Shown piece by piece: positions 2,857-16,375 of a DNA stretch of 19,124 bases. Source of the stretch: Promethearchaeota archaeon (lineage in GTDB: Archaea > Asgardarchaeota > Lokiarchaeia > Sigyniarchaeales > SOKP01). The position numbers and the translations under genes are program-made. Each line of letters opens with the position of its first letter. Position 1 is the stretch's first letter. Where the stretch lies: the NCBI GenBank assembly GCA_048941015.1, contig JBHLNZ010000059.1:1-19124 (forward strand), given 5' to 3'. The notes under the pieces were generated by a model. The model saw only the letters and a program-made list of their open reading frames with translations, searched no databases and was not told the origin of the DNA.

Positions 2857-4998
2857 TTAATTATTTATTGGAATACTTATAGGAACAATAATTTTTTTCT
2901 CGATTAAAGACTCAATTGCATTTATAACCAAATCTTCTTCTTTAATACCTAATTCTTCAATAAGAGTCATTAACAAAAAGCTACTATTATCTTTTAAAAT
3001 AGAAACAATCTTTTTAATTAGTATGATTTCCATCTTGGATAATCTGTATTTTTTTCTTAGTTTCGGAATATCGGCAGCATTAAATGATGCTTTGAAGGCA
3101 TTTTTATAAAAAATCTCGAAAAATTCATTAATAAAGGGAGGAATTTCTTTGTTAAAATACGCTAAATCATTATCCCAATTGTTTATGAATTTTGATAATC
3201 TCATATATAATGTCATTGTGAATTGATACATATATTGCTTTAATCTTTTGGAGGATTTATTTTTTAATATTAACACCGTTCTAAGTTCTTCAAAATCTAA
3301 GACAAGACAGAAAAATTGCTTGAGATCAAGTTCAATAATCTTTTTATATCCTAGTTTTGATTCAGGGTTTTTAATTTCCAGTTTCTGAGGTTCATTCTTA
3401 GAAATTTCTTCTCCTATAACTGAAATTGCTTGAATAAATCCAGAGAAAAGGGTGTTTTTACCTTTCATTAAATAAGAATAACTTTCTGTGAAGATAGGAA
3501 GTCCACTATCCTTATGCATTATTATTATTGCTTGTATATTACTTATATCTTTAAACCTTTGAGTTCTCAATAATAAATAATTTTCTCTTTTCTTCTTTCT
3601 TGGCATAAAAACATAAGATCTTAAACTTAAACTGCCTAAAATGGCAATTATAATAAATAAAATAATTAAAACCATCAAAATGATGAAATCTAAAGATGAA
3701 TCTTCTAAAAGAACAGTATAAGAAATCATAAGATATACTTCATCAATAGAGATTGTGATTTTTTCATCTAATGCGAAATTATCCGCTAAATATATCATTA
3801 TTGACAAAGAAATATTAATATTTGTAAAGATGTAAGATTTAATATCAGCCGCTCTTAAAATTGTAGTTTGATAAGTAGAATTCATTTCACTTAATTCCAT
3901 ATTTCTCCCAATCTCATAGTTATTAATAAAAATTTTTAATTCTGAATTGGGAGAAAGCGTTTCAGGCCAAGTCTTATCAATTTTAAATTTAAAATTAAGA
4001 TTTGCATCTCTTATTTTAATGTTTGCCTCATCAATTGATTCTCCAACTTGACATAATGAGATTGAGGTATAACGGTTTATGACCTTCTCGAATGAGAATG
4101 AAAAATTAACAAATTTTATAATTAATTCGTCAAAATTATCAAGATCCCAATAATCTGCAACATTGTCCTCGCTATAAATATCAATTCCTAAAGAAATTGT
4201 AAAATTTTGACTATTAGAGCCTAAGATAGATTCAAGATAAAATATTAAAACATCTTGGGGAACTGAAAGCATATTAGTATCAAATAAATAATCCTTACCA
4301 GGTGGATCACCAGTTCCAATCTGCTCTGTTTGAAAGTGTGCAATCTCATATACTTTATTTTTTTCTAAATCTGAAATTAACACATAAAATCTAGCATAAT
4401 CTCCAATGCTATAGGTATCAACATCATAATTTGGATTCCATCTTGCCAAATCTCCAGTTAAATAATCCTCTTCTCTGTCAAGGTTGTCATCAACTGTTGC
4501 ATTAACTATAACATGAATAGATGCAGATTTTATGACGTAATCTTCCATATCAATTGGAAGTGTTATATTGTGATCCCAGTGAACACTCGGATTCTGGACT
4601 GCAGTAGAATCATTAAACTCATGAGAAACTCTACAGCCATAAGAGGTAATTTCATCTAGATCAGGTCGATTTGGAAATTTGGGGTTATTTGTTTCAACCC
4701 AATCTATAGCGAGCGGTGGGTCTGCAATCAAAGAGAAATTTCCCTTCGAACCACAAATTTCAAAATTTCCTTGTCCTGAATGAATAGTTCCATTTACATC
4801 AGTATTATCTCCATCTTGTATTATATTCCAATGATCTTCTACACTAAAATCAGGATTTTCGATCCAATTTTTATTGTAGTTCACTTCTTTCAAAGCATGA
4901 GCATTTGATGTTAAAGTAATTATAGTAAATATACTAACTAAAAAAACGGCACTAAGACTATTTTTATAATTAAGTTTCCGCCATTCTTGATAAAGCAT
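2857..4998 (-). CDS. Type-I membrane protein: signal peptide, ~400-aa beta-rich ectodomain, single TM helix, cytoplasmic longin-like domain, C-terminal winged-helix-like domain
   Basis: Basic then hydrophobic N-terminus ending SNAHA|LK. TM FIILMVLIILFIIIAILGSLSL is followed by PRKKKR (positive-inside). IQAIIIMHKDSGLPIF...LFSGFIQAISVIGEEI matches the pattern of Asgard longin-like domains. The tail LSKMEIILIKKI...LLMTLIEEL...VINAIESLIEKKIIVP has a wHTH pattern. Confidence 0.75.
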   Translation of the reverse strand: MLYQEWRKLNYKNSLSAVFLVSIFTIITLTSNAHALKEVNYNKNWIENPDFSVEDHWNIIQDGDNTDVNGTIHSGQGNFEICGSKGNFSLIADPPLAIDWVETNNPKFPNRPDLDEITSYGCRVSHEFNDSTAVQNPSVHWDHNITLPIDMEDYVIKSASIHVIVNATVDDNLDREEDYLTGDLARWNPNYDVDTYSIGDYARFYVLISDLEKNKVYEIAHFQTEQIGTGDPPGKDYLFDTNMLSVPQDVLIFYLESILGSNSQNFTISLGIDIYSEDNVADYWDLDNFDELIIKFVNFSFSFEKVINRYTSISLCQVGESIDEANIKIRDANLNFKFKIDKTWPETLSPNSELKIFINNYEIGRNMELSEMNSTYQTTILRAADIKSYIFTNINISLSIMIYLADNFALDEKITISIDEVYLMISYTVLLEDSSLDFIILMVLIILFIIIAILGSLSLRSYVFMPRKKKRENYLLLRTQRFKDISNIQAIIIMHKDSGLPIFTESYSYLMKGKNTLFSGFIQAISVIGEEISKNEPQKLEIKNPESKLGYKKIIELDLKQFFCLVLDFEELRTVLILKNKSSKRLKQYMYQFTMTLYMRLSKFINNWDNDLAYFNKEIPPFINEFFEIFYKNAFKASFNAADIPKLRKKYRLSKMEIILIKKIVSILKDNSSFLLMTLIEELGIKEEDLVINAIESLIEKKIIVPISIPINN

Positions 4999-5226
4999 AA
5001 TTCTTCTCTTATTAATTTTAAATAAAAAAATTGAAATGTATTCTTATAGTTTAAATATTTACAACTTAACCCCTTTTTGAACAAAGAAATAGTACAATTT
5101 TTGTTATTTATAATTTTGTAAAAATTTCTAAATTTCAAATCAATTATTATTGAATTCTAGCTATTCTTACATTTCATTAAATATTTCAAATAATCTTTAT
5201 TTAGACTAAGAACATTTTAATTAATT

Positions 5227-6852
5227 ATGACGATTACTGAAAAAAAATTTATTCTTGCTATTGACCACGGTACAGGTGGACCTAAAGCTGCAGTTGTTTC
5301 TACACATGGAGATGTTCTTGAATGGGCTTTTCAAGAAGTGCCGCTATTTGTAGAAAAGGGAGGAGGTGTAGAGCAAAATCCAGATGATTGGTGGAATGCC
5401 ATAGTTAAAACATGTAAGCAAGTTATTGATACTGGATGTGTATCTGTTGATGATATTGTTGGTATCTGTAATACTAGTCAATGGAGTGGTACCATTCCAG
5501 TAGATAGAGATGGCAATCATCTTACGAATGCTATTATATGGATGGATACTCGTGGTGCACCTTATATTAAAGATTTCTATAAAGGCCTATTTCAAGTCTC
5601 AGGTCTTAATATTTTCAAAGCTTTAAAATTTGTTAGACGTACTGGGGGAGCTCCGGGGTTAAGTGGGAAAGACCCAATTGCTCATATGCTTTGTTTAAAA
5701 CATGAACAACCAGAAATATATGAAAAAACTTACAATTTTCTTGAACCTCAGGATTATATAAATTTAAAGCTCACAGGGAGATTTGCTTCTTCTTTTACAA
5801 CCATAGGAGTACATTGGTTAACAGACATAAGAAAGATTAATAGAATTAAATATTCTAAAAAACTCATAAAAATGACAAAGATTGACCAGAATAAGTTACC
5901 TTCTGAATTGGTAAATTCTACTGATATTCTTGGAAATGTAAAAAGAGAAGTTGCAGATGAATTAGGGCTTAATAGTAATACAAAAGTTATAGCAGGGGCT
6001 CCTGATGTTCCTTCTGCAGCCATAGGTTCTGGTGCTGTAAGAAATTATGAAACACATATTTATATAGGGACCAGTGATTGGGTAGTGTGCCATATTCCTT
6101 TTAAAAAAACGGATATTTTCCATAATATTGGTGCAATTGCTTCTGGAATACCTGGTAGATATATGGCAATAAATGAACAAGAAATTGCCGGTGGAGCATT
6201 ATCATTTTTAAGAGATAAAATTTTATATCATAAAGATGAATTATTGAGAGAAGAAGCATTACCAGATGTCTACAAAATCTTTGATAGAATAGTAGAAAAG
6301 GTACCCGCCGGTTCTAACAATCTTATTTTTACCCCTTGGCTAATTGGTGAGAGAACACCTGTAGATGACCATACTATTAGGGCAGGTTTATATAATTTAT
6401 CTTTAGAAATGTCTAGGGAACATATAATTCGAGCTATATTCGAAGGTGTCGCCTATAATATAAAATGGTTATTTATGTATTTAGAAAAGTTTATTCAAAA
6501 GCGAAAAATAAAAGAAAACCCAGGAATGACAAAAAAAGATATAGTGATACCAGAAATAAATATTATAGGAGGGGGTGCTAATAGTAAAATCTGGTGCCAA
6601 ATTTTTGCGGATATTCTTAATAGAACTATAAAGCAAGTTAAAGATCCTATTCAAGCAAATGCAAGAGGGGCTGCCTTTATGGCATCAGTTGCCCTTGGAT
6701 ATATACAATGGGATCATATTCCAAAGCATATCCAAATTTCAAATGTGTTCACTCCAAATCCGGAAAACAGAGAATTATATGATAAACTATTCGAAGAATA
6801 TGTAAATATTTATAAAATCATGAATAAAACATATAAACGTTTAAATTCGTAA
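5227..6852 (+). CDS. FGGY-family carbohydrate kinase (xylulokinase-like)
   Basis: LAIDHGTGGPKA (phosphate-1), VEQNPDDWW, AIIWMDTR, GAPD, YIGTS, PWLIGERTP, RAIFEGVA, IIGGGANS, ARGAA. Confidence 0.93.
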   Translation: MTITEKKFILAIDHGTGGPKAAVVSTHGDVLEWAFQEVPLFVEKGGGVEQNPDDWWNAIVKTCKQVIDTGCVSVDDIVGICNTSQWSGTIPVDRDGNHLTNAIIWMDTRGAPYIKDFYKGLFQVSGLNIFKALKFVRRTGGAPGLSGKDPIAHMLCLKHEQPEIYEKTYNFLEPQDYINLKLTGRFASSFTTIGVHWLTDIRKINRIKYSKKLIKMTKIDQNKLPSELVNSTDILGNVKREVADELGLNSNTKVIAGAPDVPSAAIGSGAVRNYETHIYIGTSDWVVCHIPFKKTDIFHNIGAIASGIPGRYMAINEQEIAGGALSFLRDKILYHKDELLREEALPDVYKIFDRIVEKVPAGSNNLIFTPWLIGERTPVDDHTIRAGLYNLSLEMSREHIIRAIFEGVAYNIKWLFMYLEKFIQKRKIKENPGMTKKDIVIPEINIIGGGANSKIWCQIFADILNRTIKQVKDPIQANARGAAFMASVALGYIQWDHIPKHIQISNVFTPNPENRELYDKLFEEYVNIYKIMNKTYKRLNS

Positions 6853-6865
6853 AATAAAAAAAAAT

Positions 6866-7723
6866 TTATTTAATTTTTATTCTATTCGCTAAATCACTAT
6901 AATTTCTTCGTTCGAAAAACTCCTTAATTAATCTGATACGATCTTTATTTATTGTTGAGAGTGTTGATTTTTGGTTTACTTCCTTAATTAAGTTTTTTTC
7001 AGAGATATGTTTATAATTTTCAAGAGTTTCCTTAATTAATTCTACATCTTTTACAAATTGATTGAAATAGCTTTCAACTATCTTATATCCATCATGTTCA
7101 TCTATTTCTAGAGATTTATTAATAATTAAGCTCTCATAGTTTACATTAGTATCCCATGGCATATTTACGATGTGTTTTTTTAGATTTACCAAGAAATCGT
7201 TTTTCATTTTGTTGCTAATTAAAAAGTAATAATATCCTGGATTTGGATAAATATCTCGATCGTATTTTAAGAATTGTATTGAAGGAGTGTCTCTATATTG
7301 CTCAGGAATTAATTTATCAAAAATTTTATCAAGTATACTTAAGTCAACAGTAAATTGTTTGCTAGTTATAATATATGAGGGGTAATTGAATAATTTAGCG
7401 TGAAGGAACCCTGCAACACAATTAAAACCAAAAAGATCTACGAGGTATTTTAAAGTTATGCCATTACTAGTTGCTTCTTTTGGTTCTTCAGATAACTTTG
7501 ATATTGACATATCAATAGTTTCATACCCAATTACATTCTGTTTGGTATCGGTAATCACGATAAATTGATGGTTTTGGCATACAGCACCTTGTGGAACTTT
7601 AATTTTGACAAGACCAAACTTTTTTTCTGAATATATGGACAGCGGAATTTTAAGGAGTTTTGACCCTCCACAATTAGGGCATTCTACTCTTAATGGTTTA
7701 AATTCGCTTTCCATTTTTATCAT
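6866..7723 (-). CDS. Hypothetical protein with N-terminal Zn-ribbon-like domain (CxxC...CxxH)
   Basis: VECPNCGGSK...GAVCQNHQF; 285-aa ORF without TM segments. The start may be the second Met (MESEF). Confidence 0.7.
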   Translation of the reverse strand: MIKMESEFKPLRVECPNCGGSKLLKIPLSIYSEKKFGLVKIKVPQGAVCQNHQFIVITDTKQNVIGYETIDMSISKLSEEPKEATSNGITLKYLVDLFGFNCVAGFLHAKLFNYPSYIITSKQFTVDLSILDKIFDKLIPEQYRDTPSIQFLKYDRDIYPNPGYYYFLISNKMKNDFLVNLKKHIVNMPWDTNVNYESLIINKSLEIDEHDGYKIVESYFNQFVKDVELIKETLENYKHISEKNLIKEVNQKSTLSTINKDRIRLIKEFFERRNYSDLANRIKIK

Positions 7724-7860: not shown

Positions 7861-8397
7861 TTATCTATTTTCTTCTTTTTCATGATGAAGCATAACAACA
7901 ATCCCTAATATTAATACTGCCATATCATCTGTAATATCAGGGCGCATTTTAACTCCATACGTTCCTTTAATTCTAAATAATTTTTTGCTTATTTCTGCAA
8001 CTTCATCATCTTTATACAAAATTTTGTATTTTAATTGCCAAATATTACCTTTCATCGTAAATAGTCTAGTCTCATTCGGGTCTTCAAACCAGTAGCTAGG
8101 TTTGATAGCAACAATCTTTCTTTTCAATTTCCCTATCATTTTATCATCATCTTCTTCTCCACCAGTATAAAAGGAATAAGTAGAGCGCATGGAAATGACT
8201 TTTTCATGCACAGTAATCAAGGGATTTGCTTCATTTTCATCCTCAATATTATACAGTCTGTATGTATTCCCAATTTTAATAATTTTGCCTTTAAAGTATC
8301 CTAACTCCTCCTTATCAGGAGTCATCACTTTTACTTTATCACGAAATGATAATAATTTCTCTTTAAGTAAAAATTCTCTTTGTTTTGCTAATTCCAT
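7861..8397 (-). CDS. LURP-one-related / scramblase / Tubby-C-like beta-barrel protein
   Basis: Repeated KEKLLSFRDKVKV / HEKVISMRSTYSF / KRKIVAIKPSYWF strands, MKGNIWQLKYKI, VAEISKKLFRIKGTYGV, and a terminal hydrophobic helix DMAVLILGIVVML that would fill the barrel. Confidence 0.85.
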   Translation of the reverse strand: MELAKQREFLLKEKLLSFRDKVKVMTPDKEELGYFKGKIIKIGNTYRLYNIEDENEANPLITVHEKVISMRSTYSFYTGGEEDDDKMIGKLKRKIVAIKPSYWFEDPNETRLFTMKGNIWQLKYKILYKDDEVAEISKKLFRIKGTYGVKMRPDITDDMAVLILGIVVMLHHEKEENR

Positions 8398-10519: not shown

Positions 10520-11377
10520 ATGGGGTTCAAAGAAAATCTCAGAGAAAAATTGGATGGAATTTTTACAGAGTATGAATTAAATCTCCTTCCAAGAGGCTTC
10601 CAGACTATAGGAAAAATAATGATTTTAAAGCTAAATCCGAAGTTATTAAATAAAAGGAATATAATAGCTAAAAAATGCTTAGAATTAATTCCTTCTATAA
10701 AATCAGTATATTTAAATCTAGGAAAGATTACAGGGCAATATAGAACTCCAGAAAGGATAGAATTTCTTGCTGGTGATGATAATCCTATTGTAGAGCATAA
10801 AGAACATAATATTATCTATAGATTTAATATTACAAAAATTATGTTTAGTAAAGGAAATATTAATGAAAGAAAGCTTCTAACAACCTTTGTAAGAGAGAAT
10901 GAAATTATTGTTGATATGTTTGCTGGAATAGGATATTTTTCCCTACCTATCGCTATACATGCTAAACCAAAAAAGATTTTCAGTATTGAACTTAACCCCG
11001 ATTCTTATAAATTCTTGCAAGAGAATATTAAACTTAATCATGTTGAAGATATTATTGTTCCAATTCAAGGGAATTCTAAAGAAGAGGTTATTAAACTAAG
11101 CAATAATGGAATTAGGGCAGACAGAGTTATTATGGGGGTATTTCCTGCTCCGAAAGATTATATAAAGGAAGCACTTACTGTGATGAGAGAAACGGGTACA
11201 ATATATCATTATGAGGGTATCCGAGAAAAGGATAATTATTTATCATTATTTAAAGAATTCGAAGATATAGCTAAAACTAAAAATGTTAAATGTGAATTAA
11301 TATCAAAAAGATTCGTCAAAAGTTATGGCCCTAATTTATATCACATTGTAATTGATATTTTAGCTAAAAAAATATAA
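10520..11377 (+). CDS. taw2: tRNA(Phe) wyosine-pathway aminocarboxypropyltransferase Taw2/TYW2 (Trm5/Met10 family, class I SAM-dependent)
   Basis: LLPRGFQTIGKI, ITGQYRTP, KIMFSKGNINER, VDMFAGIGYFSLPIA, IELNP, ADRVIMG, VKSYGPNLYHIVID. At 285 aa it lacks the Trm5 D1 domain; the MFSxxNxxER and RVIMG signatures fit archaeal Taw2. Confidence 0.8.
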   Translation: MGFKENLREKLDGIFTEYELNLLPRGFQTIGKIMILKLNPKLLNKRNIIAKKCLELIPSIKSVYLNLGKITGQYRTPERIEFLAGDDNPIVEHKEHNIIYRFNITKIMFSKGNINERKLLTTFVRENEIIVDMFAGIGYFSLPIAIHAKPKKIFSIELNPDSYKFLQENIKLNHVEDIIVPIQGNSKEEVIKLSNNGIRADRVIMGVFPAPKDYIKEALTVMRETGTIYHYEGIREKDNYLSLFKEFEDIAKTKNVKCELISKRFVKSYGPNLYHIVIDILAKKI

Positions 11378-11479: not shown

Positions 11480-12250
11480 ATGATCCTTATGTTAGGTCAA
11501 ATTGTGAGCGATATCGCTAAATTATCTGGCTTATCTGCCCTAATAAACGTATTCATTGGCTTTTTTTTTGGTACTATCGTCCTGATAAGAAGTATTAAAA
11601 CAAGACAGAGACTTATTTTTAACTTTTTCCTATGCATAGTTTTTACGTTATCACCTTGGTATCCAAGTGGATTTGGATATTTATATTGGAGTATAACAAA
11701 TAATATATTACCATATCAGGTATACATCTTATTGGGTAATTTATTCATTCCAATTGCGATACTTGCATGGATTAATGTTTATATGACAACTTATAAACCC
11801 GAGAGGAAGAAAATAGTACTCCTTTTATATGGAATATTTTCTATAGGTTTTGAAATTTACATATTTTCTTTCCTTTTCTTTGCTCCAGGAGCACCGATCG
11901 AAACTATATTAGGTGTTTTTACTGATATCCATAATCCAATAGATATAGATTATAAGGGGTTTGTTTTAATTTATTTAGGGGTAAGTATTATAACAGCATG
12001 TATGACTGGTATTCATTTTGCAATAAAATCGATAAAAGAAAAAGTAGATAAATCAATCGTATGGAAAGGAAGATTTCTTTTTGTAGCTTTTCTTTGCTTT
12101 GGAGTAGCAGCAATTTTTGATGCCATAATTGAGATGACACCGCTATTATTACTCGTGATAAGAATTATTTTAGCAACAAATACGTTTCTCTTTTACTTGG
12201 GTTTCATTTTACCGAAATGGGCAAGAAAGCTACTTAAAATCCAAGATTAA
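11480..12250 (+). CDS. Stand-alone seven-transmembrane hypothetical protein
   Basis: Seven hydrophobic segments by eye; basic loops (RSIKTRQR, KPERKK, KSIKEKVDK) and basic tail PKWARKLLK imply N-out/C-in topology. No lysine in TM7. Confidence 0.75.
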   Translation: MILMLGQIVSDIAKLSGLSALINVFIGFFFGTIVLIRSIKTRQRLIFNFFLCIVFTLSPWYPSGFGYLYWSITNNILPYQVYILLGNLFIPIAILAWINVYMTTYKPERKKIVLLLYGIFSIGFEIYIFSFLFFAPGAPIETILGVFTDIHNPIDIDYKGFVLIYLGVSIITACMTGIHFAIKSIKEKVDKSIVWKGRFLFVAFLCFGVAAIFDAIIEMTPLLLLVIRIILATNTFLFYLGFILPKWARKLLKIQD

Positions 12251-13877: not shown

Positions 13878-14996
13878 GTGAGTTTAAATTTGACAGAAGA
13901 AGTCGAAATTGAGGATAAGTCGGGTCGTAAAGAACCATTGCACCCTCGATATGAATGGTTAGACCAATTTAGAGGGCTAATTATCATATTTCTAATTATT
14001 TCAGTCGTGACATGGCCATTAAGTGGAGATCCTACGGGCGCGGGAGATCCATGGATAAGTCCTCCATTATTGAATCATGGTTTTAAATATTTGAATGGAT
14101 GGCCTCCTTTAATTACTATCATTGACATTGGACAACAAATCTTTATGTTTGTTCTTGGTTTTGTAGGATATCTTGCTTTTACGAGCAGGAGACAGAAAAA
14201 AGGAGTGGGTGCTGCATGGAAACATGGTCTTATCAGAGTTGCAATTTTATACGTTTTAGCTTTTTTAGATGATGGTCTAATTGGAGGCTTGATATTTGGC
14301 GACGGAATTCCCTGGGATGAAGTTTTATGGTATGGAACGTTAGCTAATTTAGCTATTGGTACATTTGCTGCTTATTTATTCACATATTTAATGCCTAAAG
14401 ATGCTGACATTAGAATGTTTGTTCCAATCGGAATAATGGTTGTTCATGCAATCTTATATGCAACTCCTGTTTTCGATCATAAAGGTCCTATGGGAACGGG
14501 TGAAATAACATTTCCATTTAATGCATTAAATCATGCTGCTATTGCAATTGCAGCTACATGTTTCTCTCAATGGTATAAAATGGATCCAAATGATGCTAAT
14601 GTAGGATTTAAAAAAAGAATCTTACCCGCAGCTACAATTTTTATTATTGCATTCTATCTATTTGATTGGATACAACCAGCAGAACATCATGACGCAACGA
14701 CTTCATTAGCTCTATTTGCTATTGCGGCTTGCGGATTCTTGATCGCAATATTTTACGGTTTTGAGAAAATTGGTTTTAAAGTTCCAGTTTTAAGTGAAAT
14801 GGGCAGAAATTTATTATTACTGTTTATTATTGCGTTTGTATTTGATCAATATACTTCACTTATCATTGATGGCAATCGCGAATTTTTCGTAGCTTATCCT
14901 TATTTGGCAATGTTAGTATTTGGCGTAATTCCAATAGCAGTTGAAGCTGGAATTGCTATGTTGCTTGCTAAAAAAGATATTAAAATCAAAATTTAA
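13878..14996 (+). CDS. HGSNAT-like (heparan-alpha-glucosaminide N-acetyltransferase / DUF1624-DUF5009-like) multi-pass membrane acyltransferase
   Basis: RYEWLDQFRGLII matches the RxxxLDxFRG motif. LNHGF...TIIDIGQQIFMFVLG matches H..W.G.T.ADLVFPxFxFxxG. MGRNLLLLF matches GxNxLxxY. GTG start. Confidence 0.72.
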   Translation: MSLNLTEEVEIEDKSGRKEPLHPRYEWLDQFRGLIIIFLIISVVTWPLSGDPTGAGDPWISPPLLNHGFKYLNGWPPLITIIDIGQQIFMFVLGFVGYLAFTSRRQKKGVGAAWKHGLIRVAILYVLAFLDDGLIGGLIFGDGIPWDEVLWYGTLANLAIGTFAAYLFTYLMPKDADIRMFVPIGIMVVHAILYATPVFDHKGPMGTGEITFPFNALNHAAIAIAATCFSQWYKMDPNDANVGFKKRILPAATIFIIAFYLFDWIQPAEHHDATTSLALFAIAACGFLIAIFYGFEKIGFKVPVLSEMGRNLLLLFIIAFVFDQYTSLIIDGNREFFVAYPYLAMLVFGVIPIAVEAGIAMLLAKKDIKIKI

Positions 14997-15136: not shown

Positions 15137-16375
15137 ATGAGTAATATAATAACCATTGGTTTGGATTATAGCCATAATAACATGTTGACATTAGAAGCTT
15201 CAAGCTATGCTGATTTTACGCAATTCCTTTTTGCTTCAGCATATAAAGTAGGAAAGATTGAAGCTGGTTTTTATACTTCAGAAAAATTATTAGATTATAA
15301 TGCAATTATCATGTCTACACCGAGAAATGTGGATCTTAACCCTAAAGAAATCGAAATTCTTGAGCAATATGTTAGAGATGGAGGAAGTCTTTTAATTATT
15401 GGAGCACGTGGTGGTGATTATTTAAATAGAACTAACTTAAATGAATTGACTCAAAAATTCGGTTTTAAATTTGCGATAGATGAAATCTTTGATTCAGTTT
15501 CTTATGTTAATTTACAAAAAAGACCTATATTATCTAAATTTAGATCCCATTATATTACAGAAAATCTACAAAAAATTGTCTTGTCCAGTTCCTGTTCTTT
15601 AATACCTATTGAGATTGAAGATGAGAAAAATATTAAAATGGATATTTTAATCCATGGTGGTTTAAATTGTTGGAGAAATCTATTTAATGGTGAAGATTGG
15701 ATAGAAGAAGATTGTCCAAAAATTCCATTGATGATTTCAATTGAATATTTTAAAGGAAAAGTTGTAGCTTTCGGCACAATCTCAATTTTTTCTTCACTAG
15801 GGAGAGAATATGGTTTTACAGCGTTCAATAATGATATTGTCATAGCAAATATTTTAAGATGGCTCACTATGGATATTCAATTAGAAGGAAAAGTAATAAC
15901 TATCGATTTACAAAAAGATTTATTTCACTGGGCAGATTTTTTACTTTCAGAAAAAAACTGGGAAAATATATCTGATGTTGTTAATGTAAGTCTTAAATAC
16001 TTTAAAGATCATTATAAAGAGATTATTAAAGAATTAGAAGACATTCAAAAAGACAGATTAGAGAGAAGAAGAGTAAAAGAACTAGCAAAAGAGGAAACAA
16101 GTGAAGAAGAAGTAATTGATTTAATTCCTTCAAGAAAAAAGGAAGATTTAGAAGAAATTATTACTGCGATAGAAGAAGTTGCCGGAGAAAAATTTGAACG
16201 CTCTATCGACTTAGAAGAAGAGAATGATATCGGAAGTGAATTACCAGAAGATTTAAATACTTTAACAGTGAAAGAATTAAAAGCATTCTGTAATAAGAAT
16301 GATATCGAATTACCTGGCAATGCTCGTAAAGCGGATATTATAAAGGTTATTAATTATGTTTTAGGCAAAGATTAA
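15137..16375 (+). CDS. Soluble multidomain protein: GIFT/IFT52-N-like (DUF4350/GATase-like) domain + ribbon-helix-helix + acidic linker + HeH/LEM/SAP-like C-terminal domain
   Basis: IGLDYSHN...TSEKLLDYNAIIMSTPR...EIEILEQYVRDGGSLLIIG..GG....TNLNELTQKFGF...GKVVAFGTISIF...NDIVIANILRWL (GIFT). KVITIDLQKDLFHWADFLLSEKNWENISDVVNVSLKYF (RHH pattern). LNTLTVKELKAFCNKNDIELPGNARKADIIKVI (HeH/SAP/Rho-N pattern). Confidence 0.75.
   Translation: MSNIITIGLDYSHNNMLTLEASSYADFTQFLFASAYKVGKIEAGFYTSEKLLDYNAIIMSTPRNVDLNPKEIEILEQYVRDGGSLLIIGARGGDYLNRTNLNELTQKFGFKFAIDEIFDSVSYVNLQKRPILSKFRSHYITENLQKIVLSSSCSLIPIEIEDEKNIKMDILIHGGLNCWRNLFNGEDWIEEDCPKIPLMISIEYFKGKVVAFGTISIFSSLGREYGFTAFNNDIVIANILRWLTMDIQLEGKVITIDLQKDLFHWADFLLSEKNWENISDVVNVSLKYFKDHYKEIIKELEDIQKDRLERRRVKELAKEETSEEEVIDLIPSRKKEDLEEIITAIEEVAGEKFERSIDLEEENDIGSELPEDLNTLTVKELKAFCNKNDIELPGNARKADIIKVINYVLGKD

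Follow-up and report, generated by a model that had tools for sequence, protein, structure and literature searches.

The 19,124-nucleotide contig JBHLNZ010000059.1 of a Promethearchaeota archaeon (assembly GCA_048941015.1; hereafter, the window) contains an open reading frame (ORF) for an uncharacterized membrane protein of 256 amino acids (aa) with an ATG start, here called the 7TM protein after its seven transmembrane (TM) segments. Analysis of this protein and its relatives shows that it represents a multi-copy family that is expanded in one lineage of Asgard archaea, is a distant relative of the HisKA_7TM domain (PF16927) by profile comparison, and includes members fused to TIR domains or to a RING-like zinc finger. 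We propose, in a judgement that the evidence leaves about evenly balanced, that the 7TM protein acts as a sensor module on its own and passes its signal to a partner encoded by another gene; the sensing, the signal path and the partner are what we infer from kinship, fold and gene fusions.

The gene is real and not a chance ORF, because a word-index search yields 267 relatives of the protein at E<=0.01, and an exhaustive phmmer search with a limit of E<=1e-3 yields 494 representative clusters. M4 is a possible alternative start, because the relatives align from about residue 4 onwards. The G+C content of the window is ~30%.

Topology and conserved residues

The first-pass annotation of the window had described this protein as having seven TM segments, an outer N-terminus and an inner C-terminus (N-out/C-in), basic inner loops, a long acidic outer loop between TM4 and TM5, polar residues within the membrane (E in TM4, D in TM6 and R in TM7), an amphipathic tail after TM7, no retinal lysine and no fused output domain, and each of these features is borne out here. 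The Kyte-Doolittle hydropathy profile has seven peaks (residues 18-36, 45-63, 80-101, 112-130, 160-178, 199-217 and 222-240). An AlphaFold2 model built on an alignment of 88 family members (alignment A1), with a mean predicted local distance difference test score (pLDDT) of 96.9 and a predicted template modelling score (pTM) of 0.91, contains seven helices, of which the second and third are kinked, and a short helix after TM7 (residue ranges in Table 1). Altogether, 18 of the 21 lysine and arginine residues are located in the loops 37-44, 106-111 and 183-198 and in the tail 246-253, the remaining three being K14 and K159 on the outside and R228 within the membrane; by the positive-inside rule, the protein is therefore oriented N-out/C-in. 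Independent support for the inner location of the C-terminus comes from paralogues in which cytoplasmic TIR or zinc-finger domains follow TM7 (see below). The TM4-TM5 loop (residues 135-159) is acidic (E141, D149, D155 and D157 versus K159) and is modeled as a short helix and a two-stranded hairpin. There is no lysine in TM7 (221-244), and the ORF stops 14 residues past TM7, without a fused output domain.

The three charged residues within the membrane are conserved in alignment A1: E125 is kept in 65 of the 88 sequences, D214 is D in 73 and E in another 10, and R228 is R in 82 and K in three. All three are buried and lie within the outer half of the helical bundle. Further conserved positions include W60 in TM2 (78/88), P91 and W97 in TM3 (82/88 each), P245 after TM7 (86/88), T176-G177, K196-G197, Y239 and G241. 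The most conserved segments across the family are TM6 and TM7, and among orthologues, conservation in outer loop 2 equals that of the helices (mean top-residue fraction 0.79). This pattern of conservation fits a receptor.

Relationship to HisKA_7TM

Profile-profile comparison reveals a distant sequence relationship with a known sensor domain. When A1 was compared, using hhalign, with an alignment (A2) of 14 bona fide HisKA_7TM domains, taken from histidine kinases of ~600 aa and related proteins that other Asgard families encode, the two aligned with a probability of 90.5% (E 1.4e-6) over 193 columns extending from TM1 to TM6, versus 0.2-0.3% in the controls with either alignment reversed. One family member, P0153, matches PF16927 over nearly the whole model, positions 3-214 of 224 (E 2e-5, 25 bits vs a cut-off of 28.6); it is the single member among the 88 with such a sub-threshold match, and none reaches the 28.6-bit gathering threshold. 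Two additional leads are an atlas cluster that had been automatically named 'putative Histidine kinase N-terminal 7TM region' and, in a comparison of language-model features, a nearest Pfam-bearing atlas cluster with HisKA_7TM on 10% of its members (score 0.88).

The two families share seven helices, the N-out/C-in orientation, a TM4-TM5 hairpin in both models (pLDDT 96.9 vs 86.6) and, in the consensus lines, a G-x4-P motif in TM3 and a W that is conserved where TM2 reaches the outer side; the structural neighbors of both models are the same in kind, with G-protein-coupled receptors (GPCRs) as the best. They differ in that the 7TM protein falls below the Pfam threshold and is not N-terminal to a kinase core, and in that TM7 of the present family is unalignable and has its own invariant R228 and Y-x-G-F-x-x-P motif. 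A phylogenetic tree (FastTree; a quick tree with local support only) separates the present family from HisKA_7TM with support 99. PF16927 matches 15 of 151 sampled Asgard genomes, including, below the cut-off, one of the 25 from the taxonomic family of the source organism, and the distributions of PF16927 and the present family over these genomes are largely complementary. Judged by these comparisons, the present family is a distant relative of HisKA_7TM that lies outside the Pfam family as defined. The parallel with HisKA_7TM sensors drawn in the first-pass annotation is thus supported by the profile alignment, the match of P0153 and the common TM4-hairpin-TM5 element. The accessible parts of two articles (PMC5847659, PMC6944256) include HisKA_7TM itself among the sensor domains of archaeal histidine kinases and name no signal for it.

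Structural neighbors and other seven-helix proteins

A Foldseek search of the PDB with the model yielded no match at E<=1e-3; the listed rows were all GPCRs, the best one being the calcium-sensing receptor (E 1.2e-3, template modelling score 0.54). The 50 rows listed by a fold search independent of Foldseek comprised 47 GPCRs, two designed GPCR-like folds and one enzyme, ACER3, the top matches being (the three values of each row, in their order, in parentheses) ADGRV1 (11.9, 4.5, 231), GABA-B (11.7, 5.4, 234), a designed GPCR-like fold (11.7, 4.0, 205), ACER3 (11.4, 5.3, 201) and mGlu5 (11.4, 4.3, 212). Microbial rhodopsins, transporters and insect-type chemoreceptors are absent from the best 50 rows of this fold search and of the one with the HisKA_7TM model. 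A profile search of the PDB sequences with the family gave nothing useful (best E 0.12). The fold comparison recommended in the first-pass annotation accordingly returned GPCR 7TM domains, not transporters, as the best matches of what is indeed a seven-helix protein. Going by the models, the likeness to GPCRs belongs to the HisKA_7TM-type fold at large rather than to the 7TM protein in particular. Because it is common to HisKA_7TM and stronger there, it is by itself no evidence of a special tie to eukaryotic GPCRs.

As modeled, the 7TM protein resembles the eukaryotic receptors concerned (class C, with CaSR and mGlu5, adhesion, Frizzled and taste T2R) in helix order, topology, the hairpin in outer loop 2 and helix 8, but none of the 88 members matches a GPCR family of Pfam at E<=0.01, and the DRY and NPxxY motifs are absent from the 7TM protein. 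The source organism is not known to have a heterotrimeric G protein. Seven-helix hydrolases of the ACER/PAQR type contain conserved metal-binding histidines and an aspartate; in contrast, there is no histidine among the positions conserved in >=70% of the 88 sequences of the present family. The bacterial 7TMR-DISM proteins are 7TM sensor modules fused to output domains. In Escherichia coli, DgcT and CdgI combine a 7TM region with a cyclase, according to the accessible part of PMC10760455. The present family resembles these bacterial modules in having a GPCR-like seven-helix unit ahead of interchangeable cytoplasmic output domains but differs in the outputs, which are TIR or RING-like and are missing in most members, and shows no sequence match to them. 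The haloarchaeal sensory rhodopsin II with its transducer HtrII, as described in the available text of PMC13466386, is likewise a stand-alone archaeal seven-helix receptor with a separately encoded partner; however, it binds retinal through a lysine of TM7, is unrelated in sequence to the 7TM protein and is encoded next to its transducer, while the 7TM gene adjoins no partner gene. Finally, the 7TM ion-channel chemoreceptors (7TMIC), in the portion of the report accessible to us (10.1101/2023.08.30.555482), have an inverted, N-in topology and an insect-receptor-like fold. For the 7TM protein, the placement of charges and the cytoplasmic domains fused behind TM7 in paralogues point to N-out, while the fold comparison covers just the families listed in its best rows.

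Paralogues fused to TIR domains and to a RING-like finger

The first-pass annotation had suggested looking for paralogues fused to effector domains, and such paralogues are indeed present: the same genome carries two 7TM-TIR genes and one 7TM-RING-like gene. The 7TM-TIR proteins (433 aa on contig C87 and 421 aa on contig C58) contain, after TM7, a TIR domain that matches TIR_2 (PF13676) with E 9.8e-11 and 9.9e-10, respectively, both over the cut-off. TIR domains are very numerous in this genome in general, with 12 matches to a TIR-containing query, several of them in open frames of >1000 aa.

The third fused paralogue (355 aa, contig C50) carries after TM7 an eight-cysteine finger with the pattern CxxC-x10-Cx(1-2)C-x4-CxxC-x10-CWxC, in which all eight cysteines are invariant. 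The best matches of the finger in the PDB, all of them weak, are RING domains, namely RNF4 (E 8.6e-4) followed by RBBP6, TFIIH p44, TRIM37 and PCGF/BMI-1; against the Pfam family zf-C3HC4_3, it scores below threshold. The same finger is found in the family members P0126 (42% identical to the 7TM protein), P0148 and P0269, and the zinc-finger forms are scattered over the tree, such that four gains or losses are needed, at least three of which are forced by well-supported branches. The RING-like module, with its conserved linker (..RPxKxTEEEV..REKKICLVCKG..), also ends five other proteins of the same genome whose N-terminal parts are unrelated: two contain 9-10 helices, one contains six, and two are soluble and repeat-like. 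The proteins with this module look like a ligase-like family with interchangeable front ends. A complete ubiquitin-like gene set (JAB protease, ThiF-type E1, E2 and an 86-aa ubiquitin-like protein with the C-terminus ..IGGFF) is located 3-5 kb from the 7TM-finger gene of contig C50, with a P-loop/TIR protein and a DUF6345 protein encoded in between. The 7TM-finger protein could be a membrane-bound ubiquitin ligase (E3) of an Asgard ubiquitin system.

A search for fused relatives of greater length found none in the range of 630-2000 aa, which is weak evidence given that ~450-630 aa lay outside both word-index searches. As a separate observation, a 434-aa protein from a genome of the same genus (G071; locus L037, 847-2151, reverse strand) shows a weak HisKA_7TM match (E 0.0024), with ~200 cytoplasmic residues of no known family behind the 7TM region, a further architecture of the 7TM-plus-output kind.

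Copy number and distribution of the family

Among the word-index matches listed, all 120 are 223-280 aa long, and the 119 besides the protein's own cluster are 52-81% identical to it; those with a named source are annotated as 'hypothetical' and come from Promethearchaeota (Loki-type), Odin- or Hermodarchaeota. Of the phmmer clusters, 231 reach E<=1e-10 and 28 reach E<=1e-30; the best 150 of the 494 range from 78 to 359 aa, nearly all of the full-length ones being 235-260 aa. Ten distant family members that were looked up are Lokiarchaeial wherever the source is named. The family profile (E<=1e-5) matches 33 of the 151 sampled Asgard genomes, and these are distributed unevenly: the taxonomic family of the source organism contributes 25 of 25 genomes with 3-19 copies each, its sister family two of two with one copy per genome, and the remaining Asgard families five of 123 with 1-3 copies per genome. 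The source genome itself (3.59 Mb, 95% complete) encodes 10 paralogues at E<1e-6, which are old, because they fall in different clades of the tree. The 7TM gene belongs to a clade of five rows with support 99 (FastTree), and its orthologues, 59-83% identical, are found in 13 related loci.

In three other genomes from the same taxonomic family (loci L063, L075 and L076), members of the present family occur as tandem pairs, which points to ongoing local duplication. Many copies per genome together with tandem pairs are usual for sensory or defense families.

Full-text literature searches found no published description of the stand-alone family. The part of a 2026 preprint available to us (10.64898/2026.10.28.762692) speaks of '7TM proteins' in Asgard archaea and of a structural cluster given as 'a class C GPCR', which may be the present family; if so, the fold-level observation is already in print.

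Proposed function and alternatives

In the proposed mechanism, the outer half of the bundle would perceive a signal, which may be a small ligand or the condition of the membrane or envelope; the candidate sensing elements in this half are the acidic loop with its hairpin, the conserved SPWYPSG motif and the three buried residues E125, D214 and R228. The resulting change would be relayed via TM6 and TM7 and would end at the conserved inner face formed by K196-G197, Y239-x-G-F-x-x-P245 and helix 8. In relatives, this face runs covalently into an output, namely a histidine kinase in HisKA_7TM proteins and TIR or the RING-like C4C4 finger in the paralogues. Because the 7TM protein has no output domain of its own, it would act on a separate cytoplasmic partner. 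Candidate partner classes encoded in the same genome include histidine kinase-type ATPases (11 HATPase_c matches over the cut-off), nine receiver domains, the many TIR proteins, Arf-like GTPases and RING-like proteins, with none singled out. The first-pass annotation had likewise proposed a ligand-binding receptor with a separate partner; the receptor part is strengthened by the kinship with a sensor domain, the GPCR-type structural matches and the fused paralogues, while for sensing and for the partner the case still consists of what we infer.

Several observations weigh against a stand-alone sensor. Neither Pfam nor NCBIfam has a model that matches the 7TM protein, even with the threshold relaxed to E<=1 and E<=10, and PF16927 finds nothing in the source genome at E<=10. 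The match to HisKA_7TM leaves out TM7, and sequence-to-profile searches between the two families are weak (3/88 at E<=0.01 in one direction, 0/14 in the other). The fused forms are a minority, with three of the 10 paralogues in the source genome and a zinc finger in three of the 88 sequences of A1; the full 7TM-TIR fusion is rare, being present in two of the 41 genomes of the taxonomic family (the source genome and G065, each with two copies). No recurrent partner gene is found among the 89 proteins encoded around the nine other paralogues, and the linkage of the 7TM gene to its own neighbors carries no functional weight, given that the whole region is collinear in close relatives. Furthermore, the buried E/D/R set would suit a transporter, channel or enzyme equally well.

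This last point underlies the possibility that the protein is a small transporter, channel or membrane enzyme, with E125, D214 and R228 forming a substrate, ion or catalytic site and with the likeness to sensors and GPCRs reflecting common packing. The conservation of three charges within the membrane, the stand-alone gene convergent to that of an MFS transporter and the level of identity among the listed matches, which is typical of housekeeping functions, are all compatible with this interpretation, but we consider it unlikely: sequence comparison at E<=0.01 assigns none of the 88 members to such a family beyond single weak matches, GPCRs and designs that resemble them fill 49 of the 50 structural rows listed, there is neither a conserved histidine nor a metal-binding set of the ACER/PAQR type, the profile-profile link points to a sensor domain, and 3-19 paralogues per genome with TIR and RING-like fusions would be unusual. 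Rather unlikely, too, is a role as a membrane anchor or scaffold for cytoplasmic proteins that involves no sensing, where the stand-alone forms would be scaffolds or remnants of fused forms. The same RING-like finger on unrelated N-terminal modules does look like a mobile module targeted to various places, and loss to a stand-alone form is plausible, because the zinc-finger forms require four gains or losses on the tree; against this, seven helices with conserved buried charges, an outer loop and outer motifs would be needless in an anchor, and the related HisKA_7TM occupies the sensor position of histidine kinases and is treated as a sensor domain in the accessible part of PMC5847659.

The TIR fusions invite yet another explanation, under which the family would cooperate with TIR proteins in an anti-virus or other conflict system, its members either sensing at the membrane or acting as effectors that damage it. 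Two paralogues with TIR domains, a genome rich in TIR proteins and a lineage-specific, multi-copy family with tandem duplicates agree with this scenario, whereas PADLOC returned for the 7TM protein just a '2TM effector' model at an E of 0.008, which is not meaningful, the orthologue is stable in a conserved housekeeping neighborhood across the 13 related loci, with no variable island, and the outer loops are conserved rather than diversifying; we regard it as very improbable. A more far-reaching form of the receptor proposal, namely, that this is a Loki-type family of GPCR-fold surface receptors that signal, in cis or in trans, via eukaryote-like cytoplasmic machinery including Arf-family GTPases, TIR domains and RING-type ubiquitin ligases, is one to which we give little credence; here, the stand-alone protein would recruit such a partner via the conserved inner face and helix 8.

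Genomic neighborhood

The 7TM gene lies between a gene for a TYW2/Trm5-type tRNA methyltransferase and a convergent gene for an MFS transporter (Table 1). Among related loci, the TYW2 gene precedes the 7TM gene in 10 of the 11 with upstream sequence, and the MFS gene follows it in nine of the 11 with downstream sequence, within a 12-kb region, from an FGGY kinase to an HhH-GPD glycosylase, that is collinear in close relatives. The paralogue on contig C62 is preceded by the gene for a 359-aa protein without a known family and followed, in convergent orientation, by that for a GTPase of the Arf family (PF00025, E 1e-14), which also shows a G-alpha match below threshold. Counting the source genome, 10 of the 12 orthologous loci, from several genera, have this trio, which cannot be told apart from general synteny. 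The presence of DUF6125 next to one paralogue and 4 kb from another was judged a coincidence.

Other genes of the window include one for a 412-aa protein with an N-terminal sub-threshold match to the GIFT domain of IFT52 (E 1.4e-8) and a C-terminal HeH/LEM-like match (E 9.7e-6), which is conserved in related loci; the combination of the two in one protein is an unusual, eukaryote-like pairing. A 178-aa protein matches the LURP-one-related (LOR) family (PF04525, E 7.6e-10). Three proteins of 713, 285 and 372 aa have no Pfam match at E<=0.1, and the latter two are kept in related loci.

Table 1. Coordinates of the 7TM gene, its segments, neighboring genes and related loci (window positions unless a contig or locus is named)
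Feature	Position	Strand	Basis or remark
7TM protein ORF	11480..12250, stop included	+	ORF list, relatives, AlphaFold2 model
TM1, aa 11-41, outside to inside; then basic loop RSIKTRQR	11510..11602	+	hydropathy, model
TM2, aa 44-73, kink at 57; ends in conserved outer motif SPWYPSG	11609..11698	+	model, alignment
TM3, aa 79-105, kinked; near-invariant P91, W97	11714..11794	+	model, alignment
TM4, aa 107-134, buried E125	11798..11881	+	model, alignment
Outer loop 2, aa 135-159, acidic, short helix and beta-hairpin	11882..11956	+	hydropathy, model
TM5, aa 160-185, conserved T176-G177-x-x-F180	11957..12034	+	model, alignment
TM6, aa 191-216; K196-G197 conserved at start on inner face, D214 near outer end	12050..12127	+	model, alignment
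TM7, aa 221-242; R228, no lysine, conserved Y239-x-G241-F242 at inner end	12140..12205	+	hydropathy, model, alignment
Helix 8, aa 246-251, short, amphipathic, behind near-invariant P245	12215..12232	+	model, alignment
TYW2/Trm5-type tRNA methyltransferase, upstream, 102-base gap	10520..11377	+	context only
MFS transporter, convergent, 21 bases from 7TM stop codon	12272..13714	-	context only
713-aa protein	2857-4998	-	
285-aa protein	6866-7723	-	
178-aa LOR protein	7861-8397	-	PF04525
372-aa protein	13878-14996	+	
412-aa protein, GIFT and HeH/LEM-like matches	15137-16375	+	
7TM-TIR paralogue, contig C87	29577-30878 (L051 6078-7379)	+ in locus L051	PF13676
7TM-TIR paralogue, contig C58	125270-126535 (L050 6071-7336)	- in locus L050	PF13676
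C50 locus L049 (C50:105400-118500)	16-909, 915-1415, 1460-2371, 2384-2947, 2961-3221(-), 3320-4276(-), 6029-7096(-)		
Other RING-like finger protein	C37:1518-2768	-	
Other RING-like finger protein	C138:5057-6313	-	
Other RING-like finger protein	C58:120815-121714	+	
Other RING-like finger protein	C144:5956-7521	-	
Other RING-like finger protein	C144:7546-9054	-	
C62 trio, locus L044 (C62:27600-38820)	4864-5943(+), 6052-6816(+), 6855-7547(-)		

Implications

The family represents a HisKA_7TM-type sensor module that has become detached from the kinase, has multiplied within one lineage of Asgard archaea and has been re-joined to TIR and RING-like domains. Should these proteins instead prove to be transporters or scaffolds, they would still make up a large uncharacterized membrane family that deserves a name. 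If the stand-alone forms signal via separate partners, they would offer a tractable entry into Asgard signal transduction, with a bearing on the question of whether receptor-coupled ubiquitin or small-GTPase signaling predates eukaryotes; and the improbable coupling of such receptors to ubiquitin ligases, TIR domains and Arf-family GTPases would, if true, provide a prokaryotic counterpart, perhaps even a forerunner, of receptor-controlled ubiquitin or G-protein signaling.

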